A stretch of DNA of 64,000 nt, taken from positions 975-64,974 of the forward strand of contig JAYSZA010000043.1 in the NCBI GenBank assembly GCA_043727115.1. The letters are read 5' to 3'. Source of the stretch: Candidatus Saccharimonadota bacterium (GTDB taxonomy: Bacteria; Patescibacteriota; Saccharimonadia; Saccharimonadales; SZUA-47). Position numbers and translations under genes: made by a program. Below, one piece after another: positions 8,428 to 60,479 of the stretch. Under the pieces are notes generated by a model. That model ran no database searches. It was not told the DNA's origin and saw nothing but the letters and a program-made list of their open reading frames with translations. Every line of letters starts with the position of its first letter. The first letter of the stretch is position 1.

Positions 8428-8432
8428 TTGTC

Positions 8433-17568: not shown

Positions 17569-17569
17569 T

Positions 17570-19360
17570 ATGGCAAAAAAGCAGGCGGTAAAAAAACAGT
17601 CATTGTCTGAAAAATTCAAGCTCCTGCTCAAAAAATATGGTATCGGAACAGCCATTATACTTTTCGTAACACTGTTATATTTCGCGCCTCTACTCAACAA
17701 ACTAGATAGCTACATCGAAGGCGGCGACTCTATGTTCAACGCTTGGACGCTGGCTCGGAATCACAACTGCTTGAAAGGTGATTGTGACAACTATATTGAC
17801 GGAAATATTTACTACCCAAACAAAGACACGATGCTCTACTCAGAGACTCAGCTCTCGACAGGACTCCTGACATTGCCGCTTCATTACATTAACGACAATC
17901 CAATATTCAGCTATAACGTCTGGAAGATTTTCAGTACGTTTTTGAGCGGCTGGTTCATGTATTTATTGGTCAAAAAAATCAGCAAGGGTCACGAGATAGT
18001 GTCGGTTACGTCAGGACTGATATTTGCATTTTCACCATTCAAAATGTCGGCACTTGGTCATTTGCAAAACCTGAGCATATTTTATCTGCCCTTAATTGTG
18101 CTACTGATATTGTGCTACTTAGAAAAGCAGAAAAGAGGATATCTAATTGGCCTGCTTGCGTCGCTTATATTACTGTTCTACGCTTCGTGGTATCAGATGT
18201 TTTTTGCCTTGGGAGCCTTGGGCGTAATGCTCCTCGTGATAGGAGTTATTAGGCTGTCATCTTGGAGGAATATTCTCGTCATCAGCTCGGTAGTCATTAT
18301 TGCTGTGCTTTCTACCTTACCACTCGCAAGACAATACACTCGTTTCTCTAAGGAGAATGATGCAGGATTCACCATTGGCGCTCAGCCTAGTTATGCATCA
18401 AGCGTTGCAGACTACTTTATTCCGCACATCGGTACCGCTGAAGGCTGGCTATACGACAAAGTCGCACCAACTAACGCTCGCCGTATTCCATACAACCTGG
18501 ACAGCATCTCCTACCATGGTGCTGTATTGTACATGGTTGCTCTGGCGATAATTATAATTTTGTTTAGAAAACGTAAAGCCAGCAAAGAACATAGCCAACA
18601 ATATAAATGGGCAGTGGTATGGCTTGCGGTTGGGCTCGTTGGTTTGTTGTTTTCTCTGGGTCCACTCCTAAAGATTGGTGGTAGCTATATTTACGCCACT
18701 CTAAATAGTGGCGTAGGTTTGAGTATGCCACTGCCATATATTTTGCTAGATTTTGCTTTGCCCCAGATTCAGTTTATACGTGCAGTGGGGCGCTGGAGCA
18801 TACTTTTATTGTTTGCGTTATGCGTAGCGCTAGCGTATCTTCCTCGTGTTGCAGACGCCACTGCAAGCCTGAAGAAAAGGAAAAGTATAGTTTATGGGGC
18901 AATAATTATTTTATTTATTTTTGAGCTTGCGCCACTGCATTTTCACTACATGTCGAATCGACCACATGCCTATGATATTAAAATTCCGGCTGTCTATACT
19001 CATATCAAAAATATCCCACAGGTAGATAATCTGCTGGTTTTGTATGCAGACCAGGACTATCCTAATCCGGAACTCGCTTTTGCGCGTATGGAGACTGTAA
19101 TGTGGGCAGGCTATCACAACAAAAATATCTTTAACGGCTATAGCGGCTACACGCCACCAAACTACGAAGAGGATTACGCTGATTTCCAAGATTTACGCCT
19201 CGATGATATAGAAAAAATGAAATCAAAAAAACTGGACTATGTGCTTATTGATAAACAACTATCCACAACCAACCCAGAGCTAGCAGATACCGCTAAGACG
19301 CTTTTCTATGAGGTAACTTATGAAGATGCAAGATACCTACTGATGAAAATCAGTAAATAG
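17570..19360 (+). CDS. polytopic membrane protein, putative GT-C-fold glycosyltransferase
   Basis: About 597 aa from ATG 17570; the ORF track start at 17555 overlaps the preceding gene. Many TM helices plus a large C-terminal extracytoplasmic domain. Its position after the GtrA/GtrB-like pair matches the classic three-component glycosylation layout. Confidence 0.5.
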   Translation: MAKKQAVKKQSLSEKFKLLLKKYGIGTAIILFVTLLYFAPLLNKLDSYIEGGDSMFNAWTLARNHNCLKGDCDNYIDGNIYYPNKDTMLYSETQLSTGLLTLPLHYINDNPIFSYNVWKIFSTFLSGWFMYLLVKKISKGHEIVSVTSGLIFAFSPFKMSALGHLQNLSIFYLPLIVLLILCYLEKQKRGYLIGLLASLILLFYASWYQMFFALGALGVMLLVIGVIRLSSWRNILVISSVVIIAVLSTLPLARQYTRFSKENDAGFTIGAQPSYASSVADYFIPHIGTAEGWLYDKVAPTNARRIPYNLDSISYHGAVLYMVALAIIIILFRKRKASKEHSQQYKWAVVWLAVGLVGLLFSLGPLLKIGGSYIYATLNSGVGLSMPLPYILLDFALPQIQFIRAVGRWSILLLFALCVALAYLPRVADATASLKKRKSIVYGAIIILFIFELAPLHFHYMSNRPHAYDIKIPAVYTHIKNIPQVDNLLVLYADQDYPNPELAFARMETVMWAGYHNKNIFNGYSGYTPPNYEEDYADFQDLRLDDIEKMKSKKLDYVLIDKQLSTTNPELADTAKTLFYEVTYEDARYLLMKISK

Positions 19361-32839: not shown

Positions 32840-34339
32840 TTATTTGTAAATAAAAAAGTCTAATAATGGGTTCATTGGAGGCTCAATCATGGTTAATATA
32901 GTCGGGCTATTGCTTATCTGAAGTAAACTGTTATGGTCAAGATATTGCCAGAGCCATGTTTGCGCGAGATCACCTGCGGTTACCTGTTCTCTTCCGGAGT
33001 ATGTATATTCTGAATTGATATCGTCAGATTTTCCTGAATATGTTCTTCCATCTATAAATCTTGATTGCATATCGTTTTGCCGTTCTAGGTGGAGCTTCAT
33101 CCATGTTTCTGCATTAAATTTTTTATCAAGTTCCGCAGAATTTGCAAACACATCGAGCGCGAGATAGTTCGAAATACGGCCAGTCCCCCAGTCGTTTCCT
33201 TCAGGGAAATATATCTCGTAAGATCCTGGTGTGTAAACAGTCCCACCTGGTAAGGCATATTGAGGCGATGAATAATTGTTGAATATGAAAGATGAGTATA
33301 TTAAATCAGCATTCCATGATGATAGCAATAATCCTTGTCTACCAGCTAAATTTGTTAGTTGAACCCCGTTTAATTTAAGCGAAATATTACCCATGTATTC
33401 AGGTGACAATATACTATGGTTAATTACCGTACCGTCATCATGTACGTTCCATCCGTTAATCCATTCTTTTAGCGGTTTACCGTTTACTAGTTCTTCTGAA
33501 TCCGCGTCGGATTGTCGAGCATATGAGGCTATTTGAAGTTCAGCTTCAGCCGCCCTCCATTTATGTGCGTTTTTGTGTGTAGGCATCATTACTTTTGCAA
33601 TGCTAAGTACTGTTGAGTTCCATGCGTTCTCTTCCGCTTTAGTGTCACCAGGTGTAAGTATAACGTCGTCAGATGTTGCGTAGTAGGCGACCAAATCATT
33701 ACCCTTCGAGAGCTGGTAGTTAGCTTCACTTTCTACCACCATAGCAACAATTTGTCGTTCAGACGGAGTAAGATCGTCGTATAGTAACCATCCAGCTGTA
33801 CCAAAGTAAAACGCCCAATAAGAACTTTGCCAGCTATGGCCCCAAGTATCACCTTTGTTGCCGTTGTGAACCACGTGTTTTAGCGAAGCTCCTAGCAGTA
33901 GTTGTTTTGCGCGTATAATTGCGGATTTTTCTGATATACCAACCTCTTTTTCTACGTATGCACCGGTCTTAACCGCAACCGCAACCGCATAAGATGCTGT
34001 AGAGATTGCTCGTTGATCTATACCATTTGGTTTTATAGGTCCCGTTTGATTACCGAAACAGTAGGGATACCAGGTTTTAAGTGTGTATTTAATGCTATTT
34101 GAAAAACTCAATCGTATAGATTTGTTTATTTTTCCAGTAGGTCTAGCTAAATTAATGTTCTTTGGCGGACTGATTGAAAGACTAGAATCGATTTCTGGTG
34201 GGTTGGGATTGGATCCAGAGACTCTAGTATGGGGACATTCGATGGGGGGTTCAACAGATAGAGCTACACCTGGAGCAGTATTTAAGGTAGTCGCCAGCAT
34301 CACTACGCATAAGCACAGTATTTTTTTTATTGAAATCAT
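32840..34339 (-). CDS. secreted hypothetical protein (possibly glycan-modifying)
   Basis: Start taken at MISIKKILCLCVVMLATT (signal peptide); the ORF track begins at GTG 34360. The mature ~480-aa domain is rich in aromatic residues. No catalytic motif was assigned. Confidence 0.5.
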   Translation of the reverse strand: MISIKKILCLCVVMLATTLNTAPGVALSVEPPIECPHTRVSGSNPNPPEIDSSLSISPPKNINLARPTGKINKSIRLSFSNSIKYTLKTWYPYCFGNQTGPIKPNGIDQRAISTASYAVAVAVKTGAYVEKEVGISEKSAIIRAKQLLLGASLKHVVHNGNKGDTWGHSWQSSYWAFYFGTAGWLLYDDLTPSERQIVAMVVESEANYQLSKGNDLVAYYATSDDVILTPGDTKAEENAWNSTVLSIAKVMMPTHKNAHKWRAAEAELQIASYARQSDADSEELVNGKPLKEWINGWNVHDDGTVINHSILSPEYMGNISLKLNGVQLTNLAGRQGLLLSSWNADLIYSSFIFNNYSSPQYALPGGTVYTPGSYEIYFPEGNDWGTGRISNYLALDVFANSAELDKKFNAETWMKLHLERQNDMQSRFIDGRTYSGKSDDINSEYTYSGREQVTAGDLAQTWLWQYLDHNSLLQISNSPTILTMIEPPMNPLLDFFIYK

Positions 34340-34451
34340 AATTATAATTTTCTCACACACCGTGACGTATATCTATCACATTGAGTAGAATATTTTGGAG
34401 TTTACATATAAATTTAGAAAATGACTCATTTGGCTGTAATATTAAGATTAT

Positions 34452-39186: not shown

Positions 39187-41916
39187 ATGACCAACAAACT
39201 TACGCTTAGAATAATTTCAGGAGTGTTCATCTCTAGTATTTTTATAGCTTTACTATACGTAAGTGCAGCACAGGCTGCCACATGCACGATCACTGTTTTA
39301 AATACGAATACATCAGGGGCAGGTTCGTTCACTCAGGCACTAAACGATGCCAACGGATCTTCAAATATGGATGTTATCTGTTTTAACATTCCAGGGAGTG
39401 GTGTGAAAACCATAAACCTAACAGCACAGTTAGGTATATCTCAGCCAGTAGAGATTGATGGAACGACTCAGCCGGGATATTCAGGCGCACCATTGATAGA
39501 ATTATACGGTGGAAGTGCAAACGGTCTAGTTGTATCCTCTGGTGGGAATATCATCAGAGCAATAGCAGTAAATGGGTATGCCGCTGATGGGTTATTGCTT
39601 CAAGGCCCTGGCGGCAATACCGTTGTTGGTAGCTACTTTGGGTTGGGCCCCAACGGGATAAGCGATCGAGGTAATGGTGCAAGCGGCATAGGGATTTTAT
39701 CACCAAATAATATTATTGGTGGCTCTACTTCTACGGACAGGAATATTATTTCCGGTAACGGTGGCAACGGACTCGTTATTGGTGGAGCTGACGCCTCTGG
39801 AAATGTTATTAAGGGTAATTACTTTGGTACAAATGCAGCTGGTACAGCATCGGTTCCGAACAGTGGGGACGGGTTACTAATCAATGGTTCGTCGGGTAAT
39901 ACAGTTGGAGGCACGGATTCTGTTAACCCAACATCTTCATGTGTAGGTGCCTGTAACCTCTTCTCTGGTAATGGCGCAAACGGCGTAGGTATATGGCATT
40001 CTGGTGCATCTAGCAATACAGTAGTTGGTAACTATATAGGCGTAAAAGTTGACGGTCTAAGTGCACTACCCAATGGAGATATAGGATTAGAAATTCAAGA
40101 TGCATCGGGAAATACAGTCGGAGGCGTAACGGTAAATGAGCGTAATCTAATATCTGGTAATTTTGGAGCGGGGGTGTCAATTACGGGTATACCGAACGGA
40201 ATCGTTACTCAAAACAACATTATAAAAGGTAATTATATCGGTGTTAACAAACTTGGTAACTCTGCAATAAAAAATCATAAAATGGGAGTTAATATTGGCA
40301 CTCCTGCTGGTGGTAGTAACGCGGCAAAAAACAATCTTATAGGGGGTACTGACGGAGTGAGCCTTGGGGGTTCCTGTACTGGTGCTTGCAATGTTATTGC
40401 TGGCAACGGATGGAACGGAATTTATATAAGTGGACTGGACGGTGGCGACAACCAAGTACAAGGCAATTTTATTGGCGTGGGGGCAAGCGGAGGTTGGACA
40501 ATACCAAATTTGCTGGATGGCATAGGTATTGTTAACTCACCCAATAATAAATTCGGAGGCCCTATAAACAGCGCTCGCAATCTTATTTCTGGCAATGGCG
40601 GTTATGGTATCGCAATTGTCGGAAGTTATTCTACCGGTACAAGAATAGAGCGGAACTATATTGGTATCGCCACAGACTCTAATCCGATGCCTAATCAAAA
40701 GTCGGGAGTTGGAGTTGAGTCCGCTGTCGATACTGCAATGTTGACGAATTCTATTTATGGAAATGGGCAACTAGGGATAGATTTAGCAATAAATGGTATT
40801 ACTGCGAACGATGGCGGGGATGCGGACAGTGGCCCTAACAGGCTACAGAACTATCCAGTTTTATCATATGCATACTCAGCAGATGGCAACACAACGGTTT
40901 CGGGTATGTTAAATAGTAACGGAACTACCACTTACACAGTGCAATTCTTCAAAAGCCCATCATGTAATGGTGGTCAGTTTGCGGGATATGGTCAAGGCCA
41001 TACTTACATAGGTTCAAAAGTCGTCTCCACTGACGCAACTGGCAATACATCTTTCACAGCGGCGTTTGCTGGGCTAACAGAGAGCGGGTATGCAGTCACG
41101 GCAACAGCTACAAAGATGTATAACGGGTCTTTATATGAAACTTCGGAGTTTTCTAGATGTGTGCATATTCCGAGACAACATCCTGATGGGGCTGTGATTA
41201 CACCCGCAGGCAGCCCAAATCTATTCATGATTGAAAATGGAAAAACTAGAAAAATAGGGTCAGTAGAAGTATTGAGGAGCCACAACATAACCTCCCAAGA
41301 GATTAAGACAGCAACAACAAGCGACACGACATTTCCTGGAGGCAACGGCCTTTACTTTAGGGAGGGTACTGTCTTGAAGGGAAGTAGCCCAGATATATAT
41401 TTTATAGATCAGATTGGTCCCAATTCATACCAAAAACGCAAACTAACCTCGGGGGCAGCATTTAATGCACTAGGCTATAGCGCGTCAGATGTAATAACTG
41501 TACCGGATTCAGCGCTAGGTCTATCTTCCGGCTCATCAATGAGCACGTCTGCTTATCATCCAGATGGTACTTTAGTAAAAAGTCCGTCCGGAACAGTGTA
41601 TCTGATTATGGATGGGAAGAAGCGTCTCATAGGCTCACCAGGAGTCTTTGTATCGCATCGGTTTAGGGCTGTTGATATTAAATGGGCAACAGGCGGAGAT
41701 TTAGCCAGGTCATCTGGTGGAAATCTAGGTTATCGGGAAGGCGCATTAGTAAAGGGTTCTTCATCGACAATATATATAATTGATGATGATTCTGGGGTAA
41801 TCAAAAAAAGAAAAATAACGTCATCTAGCGCATTCGTAGAGCTTGGCTACTCCATTAATGAAGTAATTTCTATCCCGAATAATGAGTTACCACTTGCGAA
41901 CGGTGCTAATATATAG
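39187..41916 (+). CDS. secreted parallel beta-helix repeat protein with 4 C-terminal copies of the shared ~60-aa repeat
   Basis: 909 aa, with a signal peptide. There are dozens of PbH1-type turns (NxIxGNxxxGIxI / GGxxNxIxGNYIG). The C-terminus from ~41149 holds four repeats [HR]xxG[AT]L[IV]KxxxxxxIY[LFI]Ixx..KKRxIxSxxxFxxxGY. Confidence 0.8.
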   Translation: MTNKLTLRIISGVFISSIFIALLYVSAAQAATCTITVLNTNTSGAGSFTQALNDANGSSNMDVICFNIPGSGVKTINLTAQLGISQPVEIDGTTQPGYSGAPLIELYGGSANGLVVSSGGNIIRAIAVNGYAADGLLLQGPGGNTVVGSYFGLGPNGISDRGNGASGIGILSPNNIIGGSTSTDRNIISGNGGNGLVIGGADASGNVIKGNYFGTNAAGTASVPNSGDGLLINGSSGNTVGGTDSVNPTSSCVGACNLFSGNGANGVGIWHSGASSNTVVGNYIGVKVDGLSALPNGDIGLEIQDASGNTVGGVTVNERNLISGNFGAGVSITGIPNGIVTQNNIIKGNYIGVNKLGNSAIKNHKMGVNIGTPAGGSNAAKNNLIGGTDGVSLGGSCTGACNVIAGNGWNGIYISGLDGGDNQVQGNFIGVGASGGWTIPNLLDGIGIVNSPNNKFGGPINSARNLISGNGGYGIAIVGSYSTGTRIERNYIGIATDSNPMPNQKSGVGVESAVDTAMLTNSIYGNGQLGIDLAINGITANDGGDADSGPNRLQNYPVLSYAYSADGNTTVSGMLNSNGTTTYTVQFFKSPSCNGGQFAGYGQGHTYIGSKVVSTDATGNTSFTAAFAGLTESGYAVTATATKMYNGSLYETSEFSRCVHIPRQHPDGAVITPAGSPNLFMIENGKTRKIGSVEVLRSHNITSQEIKTATTSDTTFPGGNGLYFREGTVLKGSSPDIYFIDQIGPNSYQKRKLTSGAAFNALGYSASDVITVPDSALGLSSGSSMSTSAYHPDGTLVKSPSGTVYLIMDGKKRLIGSPGVFVSHRFRAVDIKWATGGDLARSSGGNLGYREGALVKGSSSTIYIIDDDSGVIKKRKITSSSAFVELGYSINEVISIPNNELPLANGANI

Positions 41917-41928
41917 GTAGGAGGTGTT

Positions 41929-42867
41929 ATGAAAAAGCTACAAGTTTTCCTAATATCAATGTTGAGTTTTATAACTCCAATAGCCTTATCTTTAGGTTCT
42001 GCTGGTGCACTTGTTCGGCCTTCAGGAATGATAGTTCAGGATTCTGGTGGCGCATATTATTATACTTACTACACGCCAGGGACGAGCTACTCAGATCCTA
42101 GATTAAAATATATCGGACATGGAGAAGTGCTGAGTTATTATCAGAATAGAAACAGAAAAGCCTACACTATAACAGACACCGAAAAATCAGGCTATACAGT
42201 GCATAATCATAATTTAACCTTTCCTTGCGGCGAAGCTGCTAGAGATCAGTACGGGAAAATTGCGTTTTTTGAACCACTTGGGTGGCCTCCTGGTGCACAA
42301 GATCAAGGTGACCCCGTCTTTTCTTATGCAGAGAATTTTCCACAATATGTTGGCTTTGTAAACTGGGACCACTCAGGCAGTACAGGATCTCATCATCAGG
42401 ATATTCTGAAAGAGAGTGGATATAATCAAATATCTACGGTTGATGGACTGCCAGAGGGAGTAACCGGTGGTATTTACCCGGGGGGAGTACCTAACTGCGT
42501 AATAGTAAAGCAGACAAATTCACCAGACTATTACAGAGTATTTAGACACCAGACACCCACAGCAGTAGAAGTGGAAAGAAAAGTAAAAATACAGACACCC
42601 GAAATACTCGATTTATGGACAAATTTCAATAGTTATACCTACGAAACAGATATCACATCACTTCCGAGTGTAGGTAGCGCTAAAATGCCTCCAGGACTAC
42701 TGGTAAGAACTATTGCAAATTCAAATGTATATTTCACAGACGATGAGGGATATAAAGTTCTCATACCAACTCAAGCAAAATTTGATGAGTTAGGTTTCAA
42801 CCCAGGCGACGTAACAATCGTGGAACAATCAACACTAAATACTACCCCCACAAAGATTTTGTACTAA
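41929..42867 (+). CDS. secreted protein with one C-terminal copy of the shared repeat
   Basis: 312 aa. RBS GGAGG, signal peptide. The C-terminal LVRTIANSNVYFTDDEGYKVLIPTQAKFDELGFNPGDVTIV matches the repeat in the two neighbouring big proteins. Confidence 0.7.
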   Translation: MKKLQVFLISMLSFITPIALSLGSAGALVRPSGMIVQDSGGAYYYTYYTPGTSYSDPRLKYIGHGEVLSYYQNRNRKAYTITDTEKSGYTVHNHNLTFPCGEAARDQYGKIAFFEPLGWPPGAQDQGDPVFSYAENFPQYVGFVNWDHSGSTGSHHQDILKESGYNQISTVDGLPEGVTGGIYPGGVPNCVIVKQTNSPDYYRVFRHQTPTAVEVERKVKIQTPEILDLWTNFNSYTYETDITSLPSVGSAKMPPGLLVRTIANSNVYFTDDEGYKVLIPTQAKFDELGFNPGDVTIVEQSTLNTTPTKILY

Positions 42868-51683: not shown

Positions 51684-53128
51684 CAGTCGGACTTTCCGGA
51701 GAACATCCTAGCTACTACTTGGACGCCAGTTTTCAAAAGAATGACAATGTCTAACCAGAAGCTCCAGTTCTGTGCATAGTACATATCTAGTTTGCGACGT
51801 TCTTCGAACGGAATATTCTTTCTACCGGACACAACTGCTAGACCAGTGACCCCGGGCTTAACACTTAAGATAACGTTCTTTTTCTTGAACAGATTCATTT
51901 CTTGAGGGATGAGTGGTCGCGGCCCAACAAGGCTTAAATCACCCTTCAACACGTTTAGAAGTTGAGGAAGTTCATCGATACTTGTCTTGCGAAGTATTTG
52001 CCCGATTTTGCTGATACGAGGGTCGATTTCTAAGAAATCACCGTTGTCGCGGTACTGTTTAATTAGAGCCGGTTTGCCCATCTTTGTGAACGCTTCTTCC
52101 GGGGTGAGTCCATTGTATGTATGGCTATGAGTTCGGAATTTGAAAAGGCCAATTTTTGTGTCAAATCTAGACATGCGGGTCTGTCTGTAAACAGGGTCGC
52201 CCCCGCCGATGGTTGCAAGAATCAACCAAACGAATAGCAGTATTGGAGATGCTAGTATCAGTAGAATTGTTCCGAAGAATAGGTCAAATAGGCGTTTAAT
52301 AACTCGCCCCCAGCCAATTAGTGCTGTCTGATGAACGGTTACGGTTGGTATATTTTGAAATAGACTAACTTCTATACTGCCAATGAATAGTCCGTTGTTT
52401 CCGGGCACAAACCGATAAGATATGTGATGTTCCTGGGCGTAGTTTAGAATTTCGTCGTTCTTATCTTGGCTGGAATACAGCTCTGTTTGAACAATTGTAT
52501 TGATGTCGTATTTTTGCAGTTTCTGTATGGCTGTTTCAAAACTAGTGAAGTGGTGTTTTGTGGCAACATGAGCGTATTTTTCCGGGTTGTTTGTAACAAT
52601 ACCGACAACAGAAAATCCTGAGTGTTTGGCATTTAGGCCCTGTGCCAGCTCTGCGGTAATAGGCGTCGAGCCAATTATGAGTACGTCATTGATACCGATA
52701 CCGTAACGGAACAGCGTGCGTCTGACTCCTCGGGCAATGGTGCGGAAAAGCAGTGTTAATAGGAACGCAAACAAAAGCCCGTAGACGGTTACGAGTCTTG
52801 CTGGGAAAATCGGGCGATTCAGTACATATTCAGCACCGATTAGGAATAAAATACCGATAAATGAACCGATAAGTAACATCAATGCTTCTTTGAACCGGTT
52901 TTCATAGACTCTTGCATGGTAGAGGCCAAATAGAGCAAAAATAAGAAGCCAGAATCCTAGCAAAACAGCTACGACACCAATGTATGCCTGCGCAGTTATA
53001 GGCTCAATAAGGGGTCGGTCGTCAAGTTTGACGCGAATAATGAACGCAAGAGTAAATGCGATGACAAGCGCAAAAAAATCTAAGACAAGTAGGACGAAGC
53101 TGTAAAGTAGCGAAGCACTATGTTTCAT
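51683..53128 (-). CDS. polyprenyl glycosylphosphotransferase (WbaP/CpsE-type initiating sugar transferase)
   Basis: 481 aa with N-terminal TM segments and a central domain. The C-terminal bacterial sugar transferase domain carries RLFDLFFGTILLILASPILL...SIDELPQLLNVLKGDLSLVGPRP. Confidence 0.85.
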   Translation of the reverse strand: MKHSASLLYSFVLLVLDFFALVIAFTLAFIIRVKLDDRPLIEPITAQAYIGVVAVLLGFWLLIFALFGLYHARVYENRFKEALMLLIGSFIGILFLIGAEYVLNRPIFPARLVTVYGLLFAFLLTLLFRTIARGVRRTLFRYGIGINDVLIIGSTPITAELAQGLNAKHSGFSVVGIVTNNPEKYAHVATKHHFTSFETAIQKLQKYDINTIVQTELYSSQDKNDEILNYAQEHHISYRFVPGNNGLFIGSIEVSLFQNIPTVTVHQTALIGWGRVIKRLFDLFFGTILLILASPILLFVWLILATIGGGDPVYRQTRMSRFDTKIGLFKFRTHSHTYNGLTPEEAFTKMGKPALIKQYRDNGDFLEIDPRISKIGQILRKTSIDELPQLLNVLKGDLSLVGPRPLIPQEMNLFKKKNVILSVKPGVTGLAVVSGRKNIPFEERRKLDMYYAQNWSFWLDIVILLKTGVQVVARMFSGKSD

Positions 53129-53198
53129 CTATCTGTTATTGTAACATCAAACTGTTGCAGATTAATTACGGACGGTTTAGTATAAAAGCATAAACAAA

Positions 53199-53642
53199 AT
53201 GCGTACAAAGCAAAATACTACCGGCAAAACTAAGAAACTTATGATTCAGTTTGCCCAGTATATGGTTACGGGCGGTGTTTGGTTTTGGAGTGGGTACATT
53301 ATAATCATTACCCTGGACAACCACATTGGTTTGTTTTGGGCCAATCTGATTGGTAACGCAGTTGGTATTACGCTCAACTTTTTGTTAGAACGTTATTGGG
53401 TGTTCAAGACCAAGAAGCCTGCAAAACTTGGAATTATGGCCCGACGCTACATTGTCTACACTGCATTGAACGCTTTTTTATTGAACTATCTAATTCTTTA
53501 TGTTCTGCAGAGAAACGGTATCATGCCAGAAATCGGGCAGTTTATTGCCAGTGGCTTCTTCACAGTCTGGAATTACCTCTGGTACAAAAAATGGGTATTC
53601 AAAGACCAGCCAAAGCCTAGGCGGACACGACACCATGCATAA
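53199..53642 (+). CDS. GtrA-like small membrane protein (second copy)
   Basis: 147 aa, 4 TM. FAQYMVTGGVWFWSGYII...NFLLERYWVFK is the GtrA pattern. Confidence 0.7.
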   Translation: MRTKQNTTGKTKKLMIQFAQYMVTGGVWFWSGYIIIITLDNHIGLFWANLIGNAVGITLNFLLERYWVFKTKKPAKLGIMARRYIVYTALNAFLLNYLILYVLQRNGIMPEIGQFIASGFFTVWNYLWYKKWVFKDQPKPRRTRHHA

Positions 53643-53652
53643 ATTGGGCAAC

Positions 53653-53680
53653 TTCGAAATAATAAATTCGAAATACGAAA
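53653..53680 (+). promoter_or_regulatory. TTCGAA-AT-N6-TTCGAA-AT repeat upstream of LexA-like regulator (candidate operator)
   Basis: Two palindromic TTCGAA hexamers lie at 53653-53658 and 53667-53672, with a further ACGAAA at 53675-53680. They are 36-63 nt upstream of the ATG at 53716, which has the RBS AGAGGGGGGAG. Confidence 0.35.
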
Positions 53681-53715
53681 CAAATCTTAAATTTTAAGAG
53701 GGGGGAGAAACACTT

Positions 53716-54177
53716 ATGGCGAAACAGAATATGAAACAACAAGCAAGTAATTCGGGTACAGGTGGCAAGACTAGACCAACCAAAAAACAACACGAAACAT
53801 TAGATTTTATACGACACTTCACAAGTGAACATGGCTACAGCCCAAGCTATAGAGAAATTATGAATGGCTGCAACTACACATCCGTTGCAACAGTAGCTTT
53901 GCATGTTAACAATTTGATAAACCGTGGGCATTTGCGTAAGCGAGACAAATCCGCGCGGTCGCTTGAGGTTGTCGAAGGCGTAGCTGAAAGTCATGTTGCA
54001 TCTAGCAATCACAAACACGAACTGATGGCGGAGGTAGAAAACAGGTTCAAGCGACTAGAAGAAGAGGTCTCAGAAGAAATTCTAAACGAAGTCTACGTAC
54101 TGGTTGGTGCACTAAAGATTCTTGGTCACGTGGAGGTTGCCCGCGCCTACGCCTCTAGGATAAATGCTTTAAGTTAG
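53716..54177 (+). CDS. transcriptional regulator with LexA-type N-terminal winged-helix DNA-binding domain and C-terminal coiled-coil (no S24 peptidase domain)
   Basis: Residues 22-90, PTKKQHETLDFIRHFTSEHGYSPSYREIMNGCNYTSVATVALHVNNLINRGHLRK...ARSLEVV, align position by position with the E. coli LexA DNA-binding domain ([34 protein letters not shown]...HLKALARKGVI...RGIRLL). The C-terminal 60 aa are helical, with heptad-like hydrophobic spacing. Confidence 0.65.
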   Translation: MAKQNMKQQASNSGTGGKTRPTKKQHETLDFIRHFTSEHGYSPSYREIMNGCNYTSVATVALHVNNLINRGHLRKRDKSARSLEVVEGVAESHVASSNHKHELMAEVENRFKRLEEEVSEEILNEVYVLVGALKILGHVEVARAYASRINALS

Positions 54178-54799
54178 AGAGGTCTTTATAGTATCTATTT
54201 CCATGGTCTCCTAGCATGAATCCGACCATTAATTCTTCTAGTTTTTCTTTTGGTAATCCTTCAAATTCTTTGCTAATACCCCCAAAAATAAAGTTTTTTG
54301 CTTCTGGCCCCAAGGTAATAAGTCCAGCCTCTAAGGGAAGAGAAATGACTTTATTTATGTACGCGTTTCCTGATAGTTGTGAACGGTATAGTCTAGCCAA
54401 TGCTTGTGGAGTCATAAAACCAGCAAGTACGGTGCACATTTCGGCACCTTCCGACATAGACTGTTCAAGCAGATCGATCATTGACCCGGCTGTAGCGACC
54501 ATGAAATCGGCAGCAAAAGTATGTTTACGGGCGAAACTCCCCATTTTTGCAGGTATGCTGTCTACAAACATCGTTACTTCGTGTCGGGTCTGTTGGGTGA
54601 AGCCAGTGTCTGCGTCGTGGAGCTGTTCAAATAGCGGTTTTTCAAAAGGTAATCCACCTCTAACAGATATTGCAATTGATGCTTCTTCTCCTGAGATATA
54701 GACGGGCTCGACTACGTCAACGACTCTCTGGATCAGTTGGTCTGCGTAAGAGCGGTATTCTCTTCGACTGAGTGCTTTGTTTTTTATTGCACCCATCAT
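54155..54799 (-). CDS. upp: uracil phosphoribosyltransferase family protein
   Basis: Start taken at MMGAIKNK; the ORF track extends to 54862. The PRPP-binding motif FAADFMVATAGSMIDLL matches Upp DPMLATGGS, and the C-terminal ITLGPEAKNFIFGG matches Upp IIPGLGDAGDRIFG. Confidence 0.6.
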   Translation of the reverse strand: MMGAIKNKALSRREYRSYADQLIQRVVDVVEPVYISGEEASIAISVRGGLPFEKPLFEQLHDADTGFTQQTRHEVTMFVDSIPAKMGSFARKHTFAADFMVATAGSMIDLLEQSMSEGAEMCTVLAGFMTPQALARLYRSQLSGNAYINKVISLPLEAGLITLGPEAKNFIFGGISKEFEGLPKEKLEELMVGFMLGDHGNRYYKDLSNLKHLS

Positions 54800-55125
54800 A
54801 TGTCTTACGCCAATATCAGCATGCACAGGTTTCACCAACAGAACCATTACCGGCAATAACAAGAAAACCGCTTTGTTGTGCTTCTAGACAAAGTTCGTCC
54901 ACTTCAGCCATCCTCATGCCAGGAGGCAGACAGTTATCTAGCTCAAATAAGTCTCTAGCTCTTTGAATATCTTCGTAAGGTGATGAGAATATTCTGTCTA
55001 ACTCGGCGGTTGCTGCCATAAATTGACTCCTAATTTTTACCATCATAGGTAACTGTAGGCCATAGTGCAAGCATATAAAGTATAAAAATAGTAAACAAGT
55101 TAAACATCCGCTACACTAGCAGTTA

Positions 55126-55854
55126 ATGAGGGTACCAGCAAAGAATGTGTTGAAAATGCGTCGCTCTGTTTTTGTGCTATTTGTTCTAATTACGCTACTG
55201 GTAGTAGGCATAAACCCTAGTTTTGAACAGGATACACCACAGGTAGGGCCACCAGTCGCCGTATTATCTGATTCTGTAATCGCAAGTGAGCTAGCAATTG
55301 ATGTATTGGAGCGACTAGAAGTTAAGGGCAGGGCGCCAAAAACCGGTTATTCCCGAAGTGAATTTGGCGATGGATGGGCTACTGTTGGTGGCTGTGATAT
55401 GCGTAATATTATGCTCGCCCGCGGTATGACGGAAGTAGAACTAGCGACAGATAATTGTGTGGTGCTGAGCGGCACGCTCAATGACCCATACACAGGTACA
55501 GTAATTTCTTTCGTGCGCGGTAGTACTACTAGTAGTCTTGTGCAGATTGACCATGTGGTTGCGCTGAGTGATAGTTGGCAAAAGGGTGCGCAGAGTCTGG
55601 ATGCAGATACGCGCCTGCGTCTAGCCAATGACTCATTAAATTTACTTGCAGTTGATGGTCCAACAAATCAGGAAAAAGGCGACGGAGACGCAGCTACTTG
55701 GCTCCCGCCCAACAAAGCATTCAGATGCCAGTATACTGCACGCCAAATAGCTGTGAAGTCGAAATATAGTTTGTGGGTGACAGAAGCAGAAAAGTCCGCC
55801 ATGAAAAGGGTACTAAATGGTTGTGGAGAACAGGTATTGCCGGTACTAAGTTGA
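55126..55854 (+). CDS. secreted/membrane-anchored HNH-type nuclease (DUF1524 / GmrSD-C-terminal-like)
   Basis: N-terminal signal anchor RRSVFVLFVLITLLVVG. His-Me finger region QIDHVVALSDSW...NLLAVDGPTNQEKGD. Confidence 0.7.
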   Translation: MRVPAKNVLKMRRSVFVLFVLITLLVVGINPSFEQDTPQVGPPVAVLSDSVIASELAIDVLERLEVKGRAPKTGYSRSEFGDGWATVGGCDMRNIMLARGMTEVELATDNCVVLSGTLNDPYTGTVISFVRGSTTSSLVQIDHVVALSDSWQKGAQSLDADTRLRLANDSLNLLAVDGPTNQEKGDGDAATWLPPNKAFRCQYTARQIAVKSKYSLWVTEAEKSAMKRVLNGCGEQVLPVLS

Positions 55855-57311
55855 CTAATTCTAGTGAACCCAAAAGAAAAATAATTCATCCGTCTTGGTT
55901 GATTGCTTGGGTGAGTATTGGGATTATTGCCGGGACATATCTGTCGCTATTCTGGTCTGGATTTTCTGGTACTGAGTGGATTGTGTGTAGTTTCTGTTTG
56001 GGGCTAGTTGGATTTATTAACAAACAATTTTTCGGTGTGTTAATGGTGTTGTTTGCGGGGCTTGGTTTCGGGCTCTGGCGAGGAGGTTTAGAGATACAAA
56101 AACAACATGGTTTTGAAAAGTATCTGGGCACGGAAGTGCAAATTGTTGGAAAAGTTGGCGAAGACCCGAGCTTTGACACAGAGGGCGATATACGCATGAA
56201 GCTAGAGAACGTATTGGTGGATAATGAGCCAGTAGGCGGCAAGGTTTGGGTGTCTATAAATGACTCGAATGTTATAAAGCGGTCAGACATTATTGCTGTT
56301 GAAGGAAAAATAACGGAAGGTTTCGGAACGATTCCGGCTGCTCTTTACCGAGCTAGACTAGTTCGAATTGAACGCCAGGATTATGTTGATGTTGGTCGAG
56401 ACGCGCGTGACTCCTTTGCTGGCGGAATACGCACAAGCATTCGCGAACCAGAAGCATCGTTAGGAGCCGGATTCTTAGTGGGCCAAAAGACTACTCTTCC
56501 AGAAAGGTTAGGAAATGATTTACGGCTACTCGGACTAACTCACATCGTTGTTGCCAGTGGCTATAATCTAACAATTCTAATACGTTTTGCTAGGCGATTT
56601 TTTGAGAAAATATCTAGATTCACAGCTCTTGCAGGATCTTTCACCTTAGTATATGGGTTCCTGCAGATAACTGGTGCTACTCCATCAATGTCGCGCGCAT
56701 CATTAATTGCGGGAATTAGTTTGCTTGCTTGGTATTTTGGTCGCAAGTTACACCCTGTCGTACTGTTATCGTTTTCTGCGGCAATCACGGTCATAATTAA
56801 TCCTTCATATGCATGGGGAGATATAGGCTGGTTACTGTCATTCGCATCATTCATCGGAGTGATTATGTTTGCGCCCTTACTGCACGTGTACTTTTGGGGT
56901 GACAAAAAAGCGGGAAACATCAGACAGGTATTTATCGAAACAGCGTCCGCGCAACTACTAACACTTCCAATCATTGCATATGTCTTTGGACAATATTCAC
57001 CGCTGGCATTGCTAGCGAATGCATTGGTTCTGTCGTTTATACCACTTTCTATGGCTTTGACTGCTGTCGCGGGAGTGGCGGGACTAACCTTTCCAACCAT
57101 CGTTGCAGAAATCATTGGTTTACCTGCAGAGTTAGTTCTTCGATATATTACGACAGTCGTTAACTCTTTGGCGCAACTACCTCTTGCGAGTTCGGAGATT
57201 GTTTTTTCAACGACCACAGTATTAGTTAGTTATATAGTGATTGTCGTTGGGATGGTTTACATGTGGCGCAGAACTGGGTACGAATTCAGGAGCTACAACA
57301 TCATTGAGTGA
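55851..57311 (+). CDS. comEC: ComEC/Rec2 DNA internalisation channel (DUF4131 + competence domain; no C-terminal metallo-beta-lactamase domain)
   Basis: Competence-domain signature LLGLTHIVVASGYNLTIL...ITGATPSMSRASLIAGISLLA. The protein ends at ~490 aa without an MBL domain. The likely start is TTG 55851, overlapping the upstream stop (TTGA). The ORF track begins at ATG 55773, which lies inside the upstream gene. Confidence 0.8.
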   Translation: MTNSSEPKRKIIHPSWLIAWVSIGIIAGTYLSLFWSGFSGTEWIVCSFCLGLVGFINKQFFGVLMVLFAGLGFGLWRGGLEIQKQHGFEKYLGTEVQIVGKVGEDPSFDTEGDIRMKLENVLVDNEPVGGKVWVSINDSNVIKRSDIIAVEGKITEGFGTIPAALYRARLVRIERQDYVDVGRDARDSFAGGIRTSIREPEASLGAGFLVGQKTTLPERLGNDLRLLGLTHIVVASGYNLTILIRFARRFFEKISRFTALAGSFTLVYGFLQITGATPSMSRASLIAGISLLAWYFGRKLHPVVLLSFSAAITVIINPSYAWGDIGWLLSFASFIGVIMFAPLLHVYFWGDKKAGNIRQVFIETASAQLLTLPIIAYVFGQYSPLALLANALVLSFIPLSMALTAVAGVAGLTFPTIVAEIIGLPAELVLRYITTVVNSLAQLPLASSEIVFSTTTVLVSYIVIVVGMVYMWRRTGYEFRSYNIIE

Positions 57312-57364
57312 TTATCTTTGCAACGCACAGCTTGCAATTTTATTATGGCAAAATCTGTAGTTGC

Positions 57365-57393
57365 TTGACAAAAAACTCGATGCGGAAGATACT
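57365..57393 (+). promoter_or_regulatory. sigma-70-like promoter TTGACA-17 bp-GATACT upstream of the LTD gene
   Basis: Consensus -35 at 57365-57370, a 17-bp spacer, and -10 GATACT at 57388-57393. RBS AAGAGGG at 57403-57409. GTG start at 57417. Confidence 0.45.
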
Positions 57394-57416
57394 TCGCTAA
57401 TAAAGAGGGTTAACTT

Positions 57417-59057
57417 GTGAAGTATATCGCTTCAATTTTCATTATTTCAGTCTTTAGCCTAGCGATATTTCTATACCCTCCCGTAACTGTTGCTGCAGTT
57501 TCTGAAAACCTAGTTATTATGCAACTGCAAACAGCCGGAGCCGTTTCTGGCACCTTGAATGAAGAAGTTATAGTGCTTTATAACCTTTCGGCAGCGGATA
57601 TCAATATCTCTAACTGGTGCCTGCAAGACAGTAGTGCTTCAAATGGTGTGACTTTTAATGATCTAGCTTGTACGGTTCCAGTTGATACACAAACACAACT
57701 CTGGGCCGCGTCAGGTGGTTATGTTAGCTTTGCTACGTCTGAATTCATGACAAAAAACCCCGCTTTTACTCCGGATTTTATTTTCAGTGCAGGCATAGCT
57801 GCATCCGGTGGGCACATGATACTAGTTGACGAGAATAAGCAAGAAATTGACAGGGTATCTTGGGGTACGGCGGTTCAAATCAATGGTATCTTGCCGGCAA
57901 TAAAACATACGGAAGGAAAAGTACTAAGTCGTGATTCATTGGCACTGCAGCTGGACACAGATATCAATTTGGTAGATTTTAGTTCTAGGCCGTTATTAAA
58001 TCCAATTGTGTCCGGAGTTTACGAGGTAGAGATAGTTGTCGATACATGTTTAAATATCCCAGATGTTCAACTTGAAGTGCCGCAAGGCTATATGGTTGAT
58101 GCAGATGGTGTTTGCATTGAGGATTTCTGCCCTAACATTGACGAGCTACAGATTGTTGCGCCGGAAGGTTACGAAAAGATTAATGGTGCAGTGGACTGTA
58201 CTCTAATACCGCTTGAAGACGCAATACTATTTATTACAGAACTGGTTGCCAATGCACCATCCGATGATAAGGGGCAAGAGTTTATTGAATTCTACAATCC
58301 ACAAAAATACGCAGTTGATTTAGAGGGCTATAGGCTACAAGTTGGTCCAGGGTTCACTAAGGAATTCGTATTTCCTCATCAAAGTATCGCCGCAGGGCAG
58401 TATCTAGTATTTGAGGACTCTGTAACTAAAATTGTTTTGCCAAATACAACCGGAGTAGAGCTAAGACTAGTTGCACCAGCAGGCAATATAGTAAGCGAGA
58501 GTCCCGTTTATAGTAACGCTAACGATGATGCGTCTTGGGCCTTAGTTGAAGACCAGTGGATTTATACAAATCAAATTACGCCTGGAGGGCCAAATAAACC
58601 CTACTTGGAGCCAGTAGAAGATGAAGTGACTGGTGTCACAAGCGTGCAAGCACCATGTCCGGCAGGTAAATACCGCAACCCAGAAACAAATCGCTGCCGC
58701 ATTATAGAAACAGCGGTATCACAGCTGACACCGTGCGATGAGGACGAGTATAGGAATACCGATACTAACCGTTGCCGAAAAACACCTGTAGTCTCCTCAC
58801 TGTCCTCATGCCCAGAGGGACAGGAAAGAAATCCTGAGACAAATCGCTGCCGTAAAGTAAGCGTGCTCGGAGCATCACTAGATGAAATTCCTACAGTTAC
58901 AGATGTTGCAGTAGAAAATAAAGCTGGGCAGATAAATTGGCTGGTTATTGCCGTAGCTTTGTCAGGAACATTAGCATATATCACTTATGAATGGCGCCGT
59001 GAGCTGGGGCAGAAACTGGTTCTAGTTAAACGCCGCTTTGCCGGTTTTGTGAGATAA
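57417..59057 (+). CDS. cell-surface protein with two lamin-tail domains, three Cys-loop repeats and C-terminal TM anchor
   Basis: Signal peptide. LTD 1 VIMQLQTAG...EEVIVLYNLSAADINISNWCLQ. LTD 2 ITELVANAPSDDKGQEFIEFYNPQKYAVDLEGYRLQVG. Three repeats C-x4-[YE]RN[PT][ED]TNRC-R at 58656-58853. C-terminal TM segment WLVIAVALSGTLAYITY then RRELGQK. Confidence 0.75.
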   Translation: MKYIASIFIISVFSLAIFLYPPVTVAAVSENLVIMQLQTAGAVSGTLNEEVIVLYNLSAADINISNWCLQDSSASNGVTFNDLACTVPVDTQTQLWAASGGYVSFATSEFMTKNPAFTPDFIFSAGIAASGGHMILVDENKQEIDRVSWGTAVQINGILPAIKHTEGKVLSRDSLALQLDTDINLVDFSSRPLLNPIVSGVYEVEIVVDTCLNIPDVQLEVPQGYMVDADGVCIEDFCPNIDELQIVAPEGYEKINGAVDCTLIPLEDAILFITELVANAPSDDKGQEFIEFYNPQKYAVDLEGYRLQVGPGFTKEFVFPHQSIAAGQYLVFEDSVTKIVLPNTTGVELRLVAPAGNIVSESPVYSNANDDASWALVEDQWIYTNQITPGGPNKPYLEPVEDEVTGVTSVQAPCPAGKYRNPETNRCRIIETAVSQLTPCDEDEYRNTDTNRCRKTPVVSSLSSCPEGQERNPETNRCRKVSVLGASLDEIPTVTDVAVENKAGQINWLVIAVALSGTLAYITYEWRRELGQKLVLVKRRFAGFVR

Positions 59058-59119
59058 CGCACAACATTCAGGTAAGTTGGGCGTATAGTTGGAGTTACTA
59101 ACTAAGGGAGAACCGTTCT

Positions 59120-59545
59120 ATGGATTGGGGAAGTCAATTAGGTGATTTGAACTGGTGGGCAGTAGTCGGGGCAACCGCATCTACATTTGTAGTTGGGTCT
59201 GCATGGTATTCGATGAGTGTGTTTGGTAAGAAGTGGGCAAAGTTAATAGGCTTGAGCGAAAAAGATATGAAAAGTGGTGATGGCATGACAGAAGTATTTG
59301 TCATGACGGGCATAACGTCGTTCATTACAGCTGCCGTTATGGGTGCTCTAATGATGGCGACTGGTACAAGTGGAGCTGCTGACGGATTATTATTTGGTGC
59401 TATTGCAGGAGTCGCATTTCGATTCGGGAGTCACGTCATGCACAATGGATTTGCGCGTCGTAGCAAAGACCTGACTTGGATTGACGGAATGCACGATATA
59501 GTAGCACTAGCCGTAGTTGGTGCAGTGCTAGGGCAGTGGCTCTAG
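59120..59545 (+). CDS. DUF1761-family small membrane protein
   Basis: LNWWAVVGATASTFVVGSAWYSMSVFGKKWAKLIGL is the DUF1761 N-terminal pattern. 4 TM segments. Confidence 0.65.
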   Translation: MDWGSQLGDLNWWAVVGATASTFVVGSAWYSMSVFGKKWAKLIGLSEKDMKSGDGMTEVFVMTGITSFITAAVMGALMMATGTSGAADGLLFGAIAGVAFRFGSHVMHNGFARRSKDLTWIDGMHDIVALAVVGAVLGQWL

Positions 59546-59591
59546 TCATCCTGGTTTGGCCTAAGCAGATATCAACTAGTACAATAGGGGT

Positions 59592-60479
59592 ATGAGCCTG
59601 AGCCCCGAGAATATTCAACTGATAGTCAATCAAGATTCAGGCAAAGTCCCTGCTAAAATGAAGTCATTGTCTAAACTTGTTAAAGAATACGGTTTGCGTC
59701 TGAAGATGTGCGATGGTCCTGATCTGGATAATACTATTCGTGAGGCTTTAAGAAACAAAAAACTGAAACGGATTATTATCGGTGGCGGCGATGGTTCAAT
59801 CAGTCTGACAGCAAGCTTGGTTCGCCGCATTAAACCTAACGTTGAAGTTGCAATTCTGCCTCTCGGAACTGCTAATTATTATGCCAAATCTCTGGGCGTT
59901 ACCCGCAGTTTAGCGCAAGCATTTGAAGTAGCAATGGGAAGTAATACTGAGCAGAGACATTTATGTCGTGCCAACAAAAGAGACTTCCTGATAGGCGTCA
60001 ACGTCGGCGCAACTTCGCAGATGTTTTCTGAGGTCACAGATGAAGACAAGAAGCGATATGGAAAACTGGCCTATTTCAACGGGATTGCTAAGGTATTCTT
60101 CCGCTCGTCAGCACCCGATTTAGAAGTCAGAGCAAATGGCAAAAAGTACTTCTACACCAGCACGGAGCTGGTCGTACTGAACCAATATATGCCAGACTCT
60201 ATTCATATAACACCGAAAGTTTCTGGTGCTGAACCTTACTTTGAAATTATCACCTATGGTCTAGGCAACAATAGCTTCTCACCTTTTTTCGCTGCCGCTA
60301 TATTCGCCTTAAGCTTGGGTAGAAATCAAAAATATCTGAAGCGTATCAGAGCAACCAAAGCAGAAATTAGAAGTCGCAAACAGCAGCCTGTTGCGATTGA
60401 CGGTGATAGCATGGAGCGGTTGCCTCTAAAGGTTGAATTAATCAAAAAACCGGTGACTTTTGTCCGGTCAGACGACTAG
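59592..60479 (+). CDS. diacylglycerol-kinase catalytic domain (DAGK_cat) lipid kinase, YegS/BmrU-like
   Basis: RIIIGGGDGSIS (GGDG motif) and AILPLGTANYYAKSLG (LPxGTxN motif). Confidence 0.75.
   Translation: MSLSPENIQLIVNQDSGKVPAKMKSLSKLVKEYGLRLKMCDGPDLDNTIREALRNKKLKRIIIGGGDGSISLTASLVRRIKPNVEVAILPLGTANYYAKSLGVTRSLAQAFEVAMGSNTEQRHLCRANKRDFLIGVNVGATSQMFSEVTDEDKKRYGKLAYFNGIAKVFFRSSAPDLEVRANGKKYFYTSTELVVLNQYMPDSIHITPKVSGAEPYFEIITYGLGNNSFSPFFAAAIFALSLGRNQKYLKRIRATKAEIRSRKQQPVAIDGDSMERLPLKVELIKKPVTFVRSDD

Follow-up and report, generated by a model that had tools for sequence, protein, structure and literature searches.

A nuclease–comEC–lamin-tail gene block in Saccharibacteria and its possible role in DNA uptake

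Does a ComEC channel protein that lacks its metallo-beta-lactamase (MBL) domain draw on a nuclease encoded beside it? The question is raised by a 64,000-nucleotide stretch of a Candidatus Saccharimonadota bacterium (assembly GCA_043727115.1, contig JAYSZA010000043.1), here called the window, in which the genes for a DUF1524 nuclease, ComEC and a protein with two lamin-tail domains (LTDs) follow one another on one strand. An earlier note on this DNA had described the three as a DNA-uptake module, the nuclease supplying the MBL activity and the LTD protein acting as DNA receptor. Pfam finds all three genes at the positions given there (Table 1), with the domains named there, and the nearest named homologs of all three proteins are labeled ‘Candidatus Saccharibacteria bacterium’. 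Based on gene order and predicted structure, we tentatively favor a co-transcribed envelope operon in which a tethered DNase would act at ComEC as an entry nuclease, in the manner of EndA, with the LTD protein as a third partner, a reading that we consider possible and only just short of probable.

The three genes and their products

The nuclease is predicted to comprise a cytoplasmic N-terminus of net charge +5, a transmembrane (TM) segment at residues 15-33, a disordered linker at 36-50 and a catalytic domain at 56-242. Both the hydropathy profile (2.45 over residues 15-33) and the AlphaFold2 (AF2) model, in which a helix at residues 6-29 is followed by the disordered linker, point to an N-terminal anchor with an extracytoplasmic catalytic domain, in line with the membrane-anchored extracellular enzyme proposed earlier. 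Across an alignment of 55 homologs (59-89% identity), an Arg-Arg pair preceding the hydrophobic segment is invariant and the linker is variable; likewise invariant are QIDHVVALSD with Asp142-His143, Asn168, Asn181, Lys184, Asp186, Asp188 and four cysteines, so that the catalytic histidine expected by the earlier note and the metal-binding Asn of the family are present and the His-Me-finger active site intact. The motif reads QIDHVVA or QVDHVVA in 30 of the 32 nuclease open reading frames (ORFs) adjoining comEC, and comEC-adjacent nuclease genes retain the catalytic motif, the four cysteines and the anchor. The best structural match of the fold is Vibrio cholerae endonuclease I/Vvn, the secreted non-specific DNase type, and the homolog in Southlakia epibionticum was independently placed in the Vvn ECOD domain (Wang et al., PMC10633639); a search of PDB sequences with the nuclease-family profile returned nothing at E<=1. 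Judged from these models, the protein is probably an exported, membrane-tethered, non-specific DNase. A GmrSD-type restriction enzyme was ruled out, as the protein carries no N-terminal DUF262/ParB-like NTPase fusion and is predicted to lie outside the cytoplasm.

The ComEC protein contains an OB-fold-like DUF4131 domain (E 1.3e-8, 35.2 bits against a cut-off of 31.6) and a Competence domain (PF03772; E 1.7e-36, 126 bits against 23) that spans profile positions 2-268 of 270 at residues 209-473 of 486, and it exceeds the cut-off of TIGR00360 (53 bits against 36.5). It ends 13 residues past the Competence match with no domain after it, and its 28.8 bits on TIGR00361, the model of full-length ComEC, against a cut-off of 190 place it outside the Bacillus type. 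Furthermore, Lactamase_B was found in none of the 120 best ComEC homologs, those of 479-496 aa all lacking it, and the earlier description of a ComEC without the C-terminal MBL domain therefore holds. In the candidate phyla radiation (CPR), ComEC is essentially never fused to MBL (Meheust et al. 2019, PMC6744442), and ComEC is without Lactamase_B in 20 of 51 known competent strains (Pimentel and Zhang 2018, PMC6299819); an MBL-less ComEC in CPR had been published before, as had the scarcity of ComEA.

Two TTG codons are candidates for the comEC start. The codon at 55821 gives a 34-nt overlap with the nuclease gene, is preceded at 10 nt by a Shine-Dalgarno-like AAGGG and is the start called in an independent assembly, and that at 55851 gives a 4-nt overlap. 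As the counterpart of 55821 (-33) is the one start available in the closest relatives (L007 and L005), we place the start there, and the comparison makes TTG 55821 more likely than TTG 55851. The TTGA at 55851-55854, from which the earlier note had derived translational coupling, does exist, although it is not the best-supported start; the genes overlap or abut either way, and co-transcription with coupled translation of nuclease and comEC is plausible from their layout whichever start is used. GTG 55911, the NCBI call (466-aa protein), was rejected because it would truncate the first membrane helix.

The LTD gene starts at GTG 57417, preceded by AAGAGGG, and its product comprises a signal peptide, LTD1 (28-195), two CPNI..PxGY Cys motifs and LTD2 (266-395), followed in the C-terminal half by three RNPETNRCR repeats (412-482), a TM segment (506-526), a juxtamembrane YEWR and a basic cytoplasmic tail. 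Pfam, AF2 (pLDDT 85.3) and Foldseek, which retrieves the Ig-folds of lamin A/C (1ifr, TMt 0.74), B1 and B2 at TMt 0.6-0.74, agree on the two LTDs that had been proposed, and the predicted TM segment matches the proposed C-terminal membrane anchor. LTD is the sole Pfam match over the 546 aa, with neither helix-hairpin-helix (HhH; HHH_3) nor SLBB found. Within the ectodomain, only the Cys-rich repeats are basic, with a net charge of +2 (family median +3, maximum +12); their paired cysteines are invariant together with R420, T424, R426, R446, T450, N451, R452, R471, N472, T475, N476 and R477. A weak TNFR_nem match occurs in the same protein of locus L024, and ECOD assigns ‘TNF receptor-like’ to the S. 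epibionticum counterpart SEML1_0775. The C-terminal module of repeats, TM segment and tail recurs in 1219 clusters at 50% identity (E<=1e-3); among the 150 best matches it is always C-terminal, most proteins measure 480-720 aa, and no fusion to a nuclease was found. The (Y/W)EWR motif is present in 50 of 52 LTD orthologs.

Table 1. Features of the window, those of the gene block first, with positions counted from its first nucleotide (DBD, DNA-binding domain; UPRTase, uracil phosphoribosyltransferase)
Feature	Position	Strand	Details
Nuclease, ComEC and LTD genes	55126-59057	+	consecutive on one strand
DUF1524/GmrSD_C His-Me-finger nuclease	55126-55854	+	242 aa; Pfam PF07510, E 1.3e-18, 67.7 bits against a cut-off of 23
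Codons for Asp142-His143	55549-55554	+	predicted general-base His of the beta-beta-alpha-metal finger; motif QIDHVVALSD
ComEC/Rec2 channel, no MBL	55821-57311	+	496 aa from TTG 55821; 486 aa from TTG 55851
Type-I membrane protein, tandem LTD	57417-59057	+	546 aa; Pfam LTD (PF00932) in two stretches, E 6e-24, 84.9 bits against a cut-off of 34.3
Membrane-proximal Cys-rich repeats C-x5-RN-x2-TNRCR	58650-58862	+	three copies; most conserved part of the protein
Sigma-70-like pair TTGACA-17-GATACT	57365-57393	+	10/12 matches; possible internal promoter in the comEC-LTD spacer
LexA-DBD-only protein	53716-54177	+	153 aa; Pfam LexA_DNA_bind, E 8e-13; without S24 peptidase domain
Upp-like gene	54155-55070	-	weak UPRTase match, E 2e-7
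DUF1761 membrane protein	59120-59545	+	downstream of the LTD gene
IS200-like Y1 transposase	12530-13213	+	Pfam Y1_Tnp, E 1.5e-8; edge of the glycan region
recF, dnaN, dnaA	981-6557	-	chromosomal origin region
yidC and Jag/KhpB-like gene	7450-8894	+	after dnaA
Cell-surface glycan synthesis region	~13300-53200		~40 kb; beside the block

Conservation of the gene order

Gene order was compared across 80 metagenomic loci from a ComEC-alignment scan (41-80% ComEC identity; chosen as the best tblastn matches and not drawn at random from the phylum), annotated with hidden Markov models built from the homolog sets. The nuclease gene stands directly upstream of comEC on the same strand in 23 of the 60 loci with at least 900 nt of upstream flank, and an LTD gene lies downstream of comEC on the same strand in 33 of the 36 with at least 4.5 kb of downstream sequence, being adjacent in 9 and 0.8-3.2 kb away in 24. 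On long contigs with nuclease homologs (62-73% nuclease identity), the order is LexA-DBD, nuclease, ComEC, LTD. Nuclease and comEC overlap by 4-34 nt in the close clade and are separated by gaps of 0-160 nt deeper in the tree, with one outlier (L038) at ~700 nt. In a neighbor-joining ComEC tree, loci with and without the nuclease are unmixed, and all those without it form one clade.

Moreover, the trio stays constant in three upstream contexts, namely GtrA followed by the lexA-like gene, PLD on the forward strand between ruvC and yebC on the reverse strand, and a third, different pair, with the downstream genes varying in all three. The association recurs in dozens of independent metagenomic loci, to ~43% ComEC identity. 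The synteny of the trio, to which the earlier note had drawn attention, is thus confirmed as a tight same-strand block in relatives, and as far as gene order tells, the association of nuclease, comEC and LTD is above chance. A scan of genome contigs with a single ComEC sequence yielded one locus (L001, 34% identity) with no nuclease or LTD gene nearby. In our literature search, no paper connected ComEC of CPR bacteria with DUF1524 or lamin-tail proteins, and the block may plausibly represent a novel variant of ComEC uptake in Saccharibacteria, with a separately encoded, tethered nuclease.

An alternative architecture runs comEC-yebC-LTD-(S51)-ruvC-PBP1-ruvA (PBP, penicillin-binding protein), as in S. 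epibionticum ML1; insertions build up between comEC, yebC and LTD, and the order persists. Between the two architectures, the LTD proteins can be aligned across LTD2, the repeats and the anchor, and (Y/W)EWR is common to both, for which reason we take them as orthologs. For example, the LTD protein of L049, whose gene order is that of ML1, also has a TM segment and (Y/W)EWR. In L049 (9477-16498), L006 (107-7453) and S. epibionticum (SEML1_0777-0773), the LTD gene is part of a cluster of recombination genes, to which L006 adds ruvB, recA and recX, and all neighbors of the LTD gene in this architecture are DNA-handling genes except that for the PBP. Four loci (L034, L072, L081 and L082) have ample downstream sequence and no LTD gene; the last three belong to one small ComEC clade with a common, different downstream gene set, a natural LTD loss.

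The ML1 cluster SEML1_0777-0773 (comEC-yebC-LTD-ruvC-PBP) resembles the window in ComEC architecture, in the build of the LTD protein with two LTDs and a TNFR-like region, and in having comEC before LTD on one strand. It differs in that yebC stands between comEC and LTD and the DUF1524 gene lies elsewhere (SEML1_0519), whereas in the window lineage nuclease, comEC and LTD are contiguous, with no yebC or ruvC nearby.

Candidate roles of the block

In the reading that we favor, nuclease, comEC and LTD would form an envelope operon, transcribed as a unit, in a large lineage of Saccharibacteria, with a LexA-DBD-only regulator ahead of it in the window's clade. ComEC would be the import channel for single-stranded DNA, the genetic evidence coming from the S. 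epibionticum ortholog, which is needed for natural transformation and not for growth (Wang et al. 2023, PMC10633639). Held on the outside of the membrane by its N-terminal anchor and a flexible linker of ~15-20 residues, the endonuclease-I-like His-Me-finger DNase would cut or degrade incoming duplex DNA beside the channel, taking the entry role of the MBL domain in Bacillus-type ComEC and of membrane-bound EndA in pneumococcus. Entry nuclease would be its most likely role because the nuclease and comEC genes overlap and travel together, an arrangement that makes coupling between nuclease and ComEC plausible and would allow for a physical complex. The tandem-LTD protein would be a C-terminally anchored third partner, more widely linked than the nuclease, with LTDs too acidic for a ComEA-like clamp.

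Known systems offer partial parallels. EndA of Streptococcus pneumoniae is the precedent for an entry nuclease acting in trans (PMC6299819), and we propose that, as in that system, a His-Me-finger nuclease on the outside of the membrane, encoded apart from the channel, cuts incoming duplex DNA. The predicted membrane-anchored, extracytoplasmic catalytic domain is shared with EndA, whereas family membership is not, EndA belonging to Endonuclease_NS/DRGH (PMC5714182) and the window protein, with QIDHVVA as its motif and no Pfam match to that family, being DUF1524 by sequence with an endonuclease-I-like fold. In that fold it is akin to the endonuclease I family (V. cholerae Dns/EndoI, V. vulnificus Vvn, Escherichia coli EndA), from which it differs in having neither a Pfam Endonuclease_1 match nor a PDB sequence match; moreover, those enzymes are soluble, periplasmic or secreted, and lower transformation, whereas the window nuclease is predicted to be tethered and is co-encoded with comEC. 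The endA gene is not known to form an operon with comEC. The ComEC of the window shares the DUF4131 and Competence core with that of Bacillus subtilis and lacks its MBL, a ‘DC’ profile already described in CPR (PMC6744442) and in 14 of 51 competent strains (PMC6299819).

The literature agrees with the earlier note that LTDs recur in extracellular nucleases (PMC6085458, PMC8289736, PMC5118699), and a precedent is set by ExeM and by DNA-metabolism proteins of haloarchaea, in which LTD is fused with MBL or nuclease domains. Shewanella ExeM, Haloferax Hvo_1477 and Halorubrum Hlac_1867/‘ComA’ (MBL and LTD) likewise combine an LTD with a membrane anchor and surface DNA-degrading activity, and the MBL-LTD fusions tie the LTD fold to the very domain missing from the window ComEC. 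Unlike these enzymes, which hold LTD and nuclease in one polypeptide, the window LTD protein is encoded separately and has no catalytic domain. With ComEA it shares a membrane anchor, an extracytoplasmic position and a gene adjoining comEC, an arrangement that Firmicutes have in their comEA-comEC operons; it differs in lacking HhH and SLBB, in its acidic ectodomain and C-terminal anchor, and in having an ortholog that is essential for growth.

That essentiality comes from the transposon sequencing (Tn-seq) of S. epibionticum (Table S1/S2 of Wang et al., PMC10633639). ComEC (SEML1_0777) was scored non-essential in all three calls (NE/NE/NE). Also listed as NE are YebC (SEML1_0776), DprA (SEML1_0298) and the DUF1524 protein SEML1_0519, whose gene is unlinked to comEC and lies beside a NUDIX hydrolase. 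SEML1_0775, with two LTDs and a TNFR-like region, was scored NE/ES/ES (ES, essential), its normalized reads falling through 451 and 104 to 13, and is flagged as a core, Patescibacteria-enriched family. The PBP gene downstream of it is depleted even more strongly, so partial polarity is possible; insertions in ruvC and yebC are tolerated. We infer an essential, ComEC-independent role for the LTD protein. The same tables hold no entry for K02237, PF12836 (HHH_3) or SLBB/ComEA.

Several points weigh against an entry nuclease with an LTD partner. Many competent bacteria have a working MBL-less ComEC for which no partner nuclease is known (PMC6299819), and because such a ComEC is the rule in CPR and common in competent strains, no nuclease in trans is strictly implied. 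The closest structural relatives, Vvn, Dns and EndoI, lower transformation (PMC5714182), and S. epibionticum, which is transformable, has a DUF1524 gene that is both unlinked to comEC and non-essential. Among our loci, selected as best matches, nuclease-comEC adjacency is confined to one part of the ComEC tree; Saccharibacteria genomes may be syntenic in general, in which case conserved neighbors imply less, and the link of DUF1524 to DNA uptake is drawn from genome context, making this a candidate role. As for the LTD protein, its ectodomain is acidic (net -40, pI 4.2; family median -36; each LTD ~ -11), the LTD of ExeM is dispensable for extracellular DNA degradation in vivo (PMC6085458), and since the ortholog is essential and comEC dispensable, the main job of the protein would not be to feed DNA to ComEC.

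The same observations bear on the earlier proposal in its full form, whereby the nuclease replaces the MBL, the tandem-LTD protein replaces ComEA as a receptor handing duplex DNA to ComEC, and a Upp-like gene nearby marks a lifestyle with DNA as nucleotide source. The linkage of comEC and LTD in 33 of 36 loci is what such a receptor would predict, ComEA was found neither among window ORFs of at least 120 aa nor in the S. epibionticum tables, LTDs recur in extracellular nucleases, and the invariant basic Cys-rich repeats could contact DNA. Yet the ectodomain carries a net -40 with both LTDs at -11, DNA clearance by ExeM persists in vivo when its LTD is removed, and SEML1_0775 is essential where comEC, dprA and the DUF1524 gene are not, while the nucleotide-source element is disfavored by a com system not needed for growth (PMC10633639) and by a Upp-like gene that is weak, antisense, frameshifted and absent in L003 and L005. 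We regard the proposal as improbable, and a simple DNA-receptor role of the LTD protein is unlikely; the candidate surface for any contact of this protein with DNA would be its invariant basic repeats by the membrane. A lineage-specific uptake apparatus of Saccharibacteria, and perhaps of further CPR bacteria, built on that surface, in which the tethered DUF1524 protein makes up for the missing MBL and an LTD/Cys-knot protein, as an obligatory third component, captures or guides DNA by its basic stalk repeats in place of ComEA, appears quite doubtful as well. Alternatively, the nuclease could be an endonuclease-I-type surface DNase that breaks down DNA of the host or the environment to salvage nucleotides or phosphate, clears DNA from the interface between epibiont and host, or limits the entry of foreign DNA, and that works independently of or against ComEC, their adjacency reflecting shared regulation. 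This would suit its best structural match, V. cholerae endonuclease I/Vvn, from a family whose members reduce transformation (PMC5714182), the idea that CPR bacteria, which lack nucleotide synthesis, scavenge DNA (PMC6744442), and the unlinked DUF1524 gene of S. epibionticum beside its NUDIX hydrolase. For an uptake antagonist, however, a membrane tether and an overlap with the comEC start across deep divergence are unexpected, and a gene non-essential in co-culture cannot be a major nutrient route there. The opposite regulation of the dns and com genes in V. cholerae also counts against such an antagonist, and we consider a salvage or protective DNase somewhat unlikely.

Inherited synteny without shared function is a further alternative, in which the LTD protein has its essential role in the envelope or in host interaction, and nuclease and ComEC are its neighbors by descent in slowly rearranging, reduced genomes. 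An essential, ‘core’, ‘Patescibacteria-enriched’ LTD ortholog beside a dispensable ComEC, the PBP1 gene within the alternative-architecture cluster, the generic Ig-like fold of LTDs and the large cell-surface glycan region adjoining the block in the window all fit this picture. Against it, three or more rearrangements of the flanks have left the order and orientation of nuclease, comEC and LTD unchanged, the alternative architecture gains insertions between comEC, yebC and LTD and yet keeps their order, and the reading frames of nuclease and comEC overlap. We consider mere descent unlikely.

Should the nuclease prove a true entry nuclease, an EndA-like solution would have evolved a second time, independently, and exported DUF1524 proteins, which have structural relatives in Actinobacteria (Wang et al. 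Table S2), would gain their first function. If the LTD protein belongs to the machine, the function of an essential gene flagged ‘core, Patescibacteria-enriched’ would be accounted for; should neither role be true, the block is an ordinary conserved neighborhood. Saccharibacteria, tiny parasites, are the only currently engineerable CPR bacteria, by a method that depends on natural competence, and among the canonical components their uptake machine lacks an MBL nuclease on ComEC and apparently also ComEA. The operon names two candidate genes that are testable in the S. epibionticum and N. lyticus systems.

Regulatory sites and surroundings of the block

Within the clade of the window, the LexA-DBD-only gene keeps its place shortly before the nuclease gene, and its product may be a regulator of the block. 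TIGR00498 covers just the N-terminal part of this protein, with a score under the cut-off. Seven loci (L002-L005, L011, L013 and L019) have the order GtrA, lexA-like gene, an insert, nuclease, comEC and LTD, the five named genes pointing in one direction, and the shorter contig L015 has the lexA-like gene, nuclease and comEC. Upstream of the lexA-like gene, the intergenic sequence at ~53653-53681 holds the direct repeats TTCGAAATA (two copies) and CGAAAC; similar CGAAATA repeats occur in L010, and GTTGAAA occurs in four copies in L011. A search for an operator shared by the lexA-like and nuclease genes gave no motif common to all nine loci compared.

The Upp-like gene keeps a DxMxATxGS-like motif and is frameshifted near 54816-54862 into ORFs 54816-55070 (84 aa) and 54155-54862 (235 aa), which correspond to residues 8-67 and 67-261 of the intact 267-aa homolog in L004. 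An identical split is called in an independent assembly (L002), and the gene is either a pseudogene or an assembly error. It was not found at the equivalent position in L003 and L005; antisense, frameshifted and unconserved, it was dropped as supporting evidence.

The earlier note had given the LTD gene its own promoter. The TTGACA and GATACT hexamers are indeed there, in a comEC-LTD spacer of 105 nt, whereas promoter-like matches as a class are not above chance (12 in the region against 11.4 expected in shuffles). The promoter and terminator scan found no terminator-like site or hairpin between comEC and the LTD gene, its counts not exceeding the shuffled expectation, and Rfam matched nothing in window positions 53000-60000. 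No ComEA-type domain was found among window ORFs of at least 120 aa, so that the earlier remark on its absence holds for these, though 64 kb says little on the whole genome.

The window begins in the chromosomal origin region, ~50 kb from the comEC block, and between the two lies the glycan region, with many glycosyltransferases, a Wzy-like protein, a Wzm/Wzt ABC exporter, rhamnose pathway genes, GlmS and Bac_transf. Pfam matches nothing in several large ORFs of 312-909 aa (17555-19360, 25595-27991, 32840-34360, 39187-41916 and 41929-42867). The center of the glycan region (20-38 kb) has a lower GC content (0.34-0.39, compared with 0.41-0.46), suggesting an island that is variable or was acquired. 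On the other side of the block, a DUF1761 protein flanks the module in both architectures, standing after the LTD gene in the window and, in L049 (7537-7950, +), before comEC.

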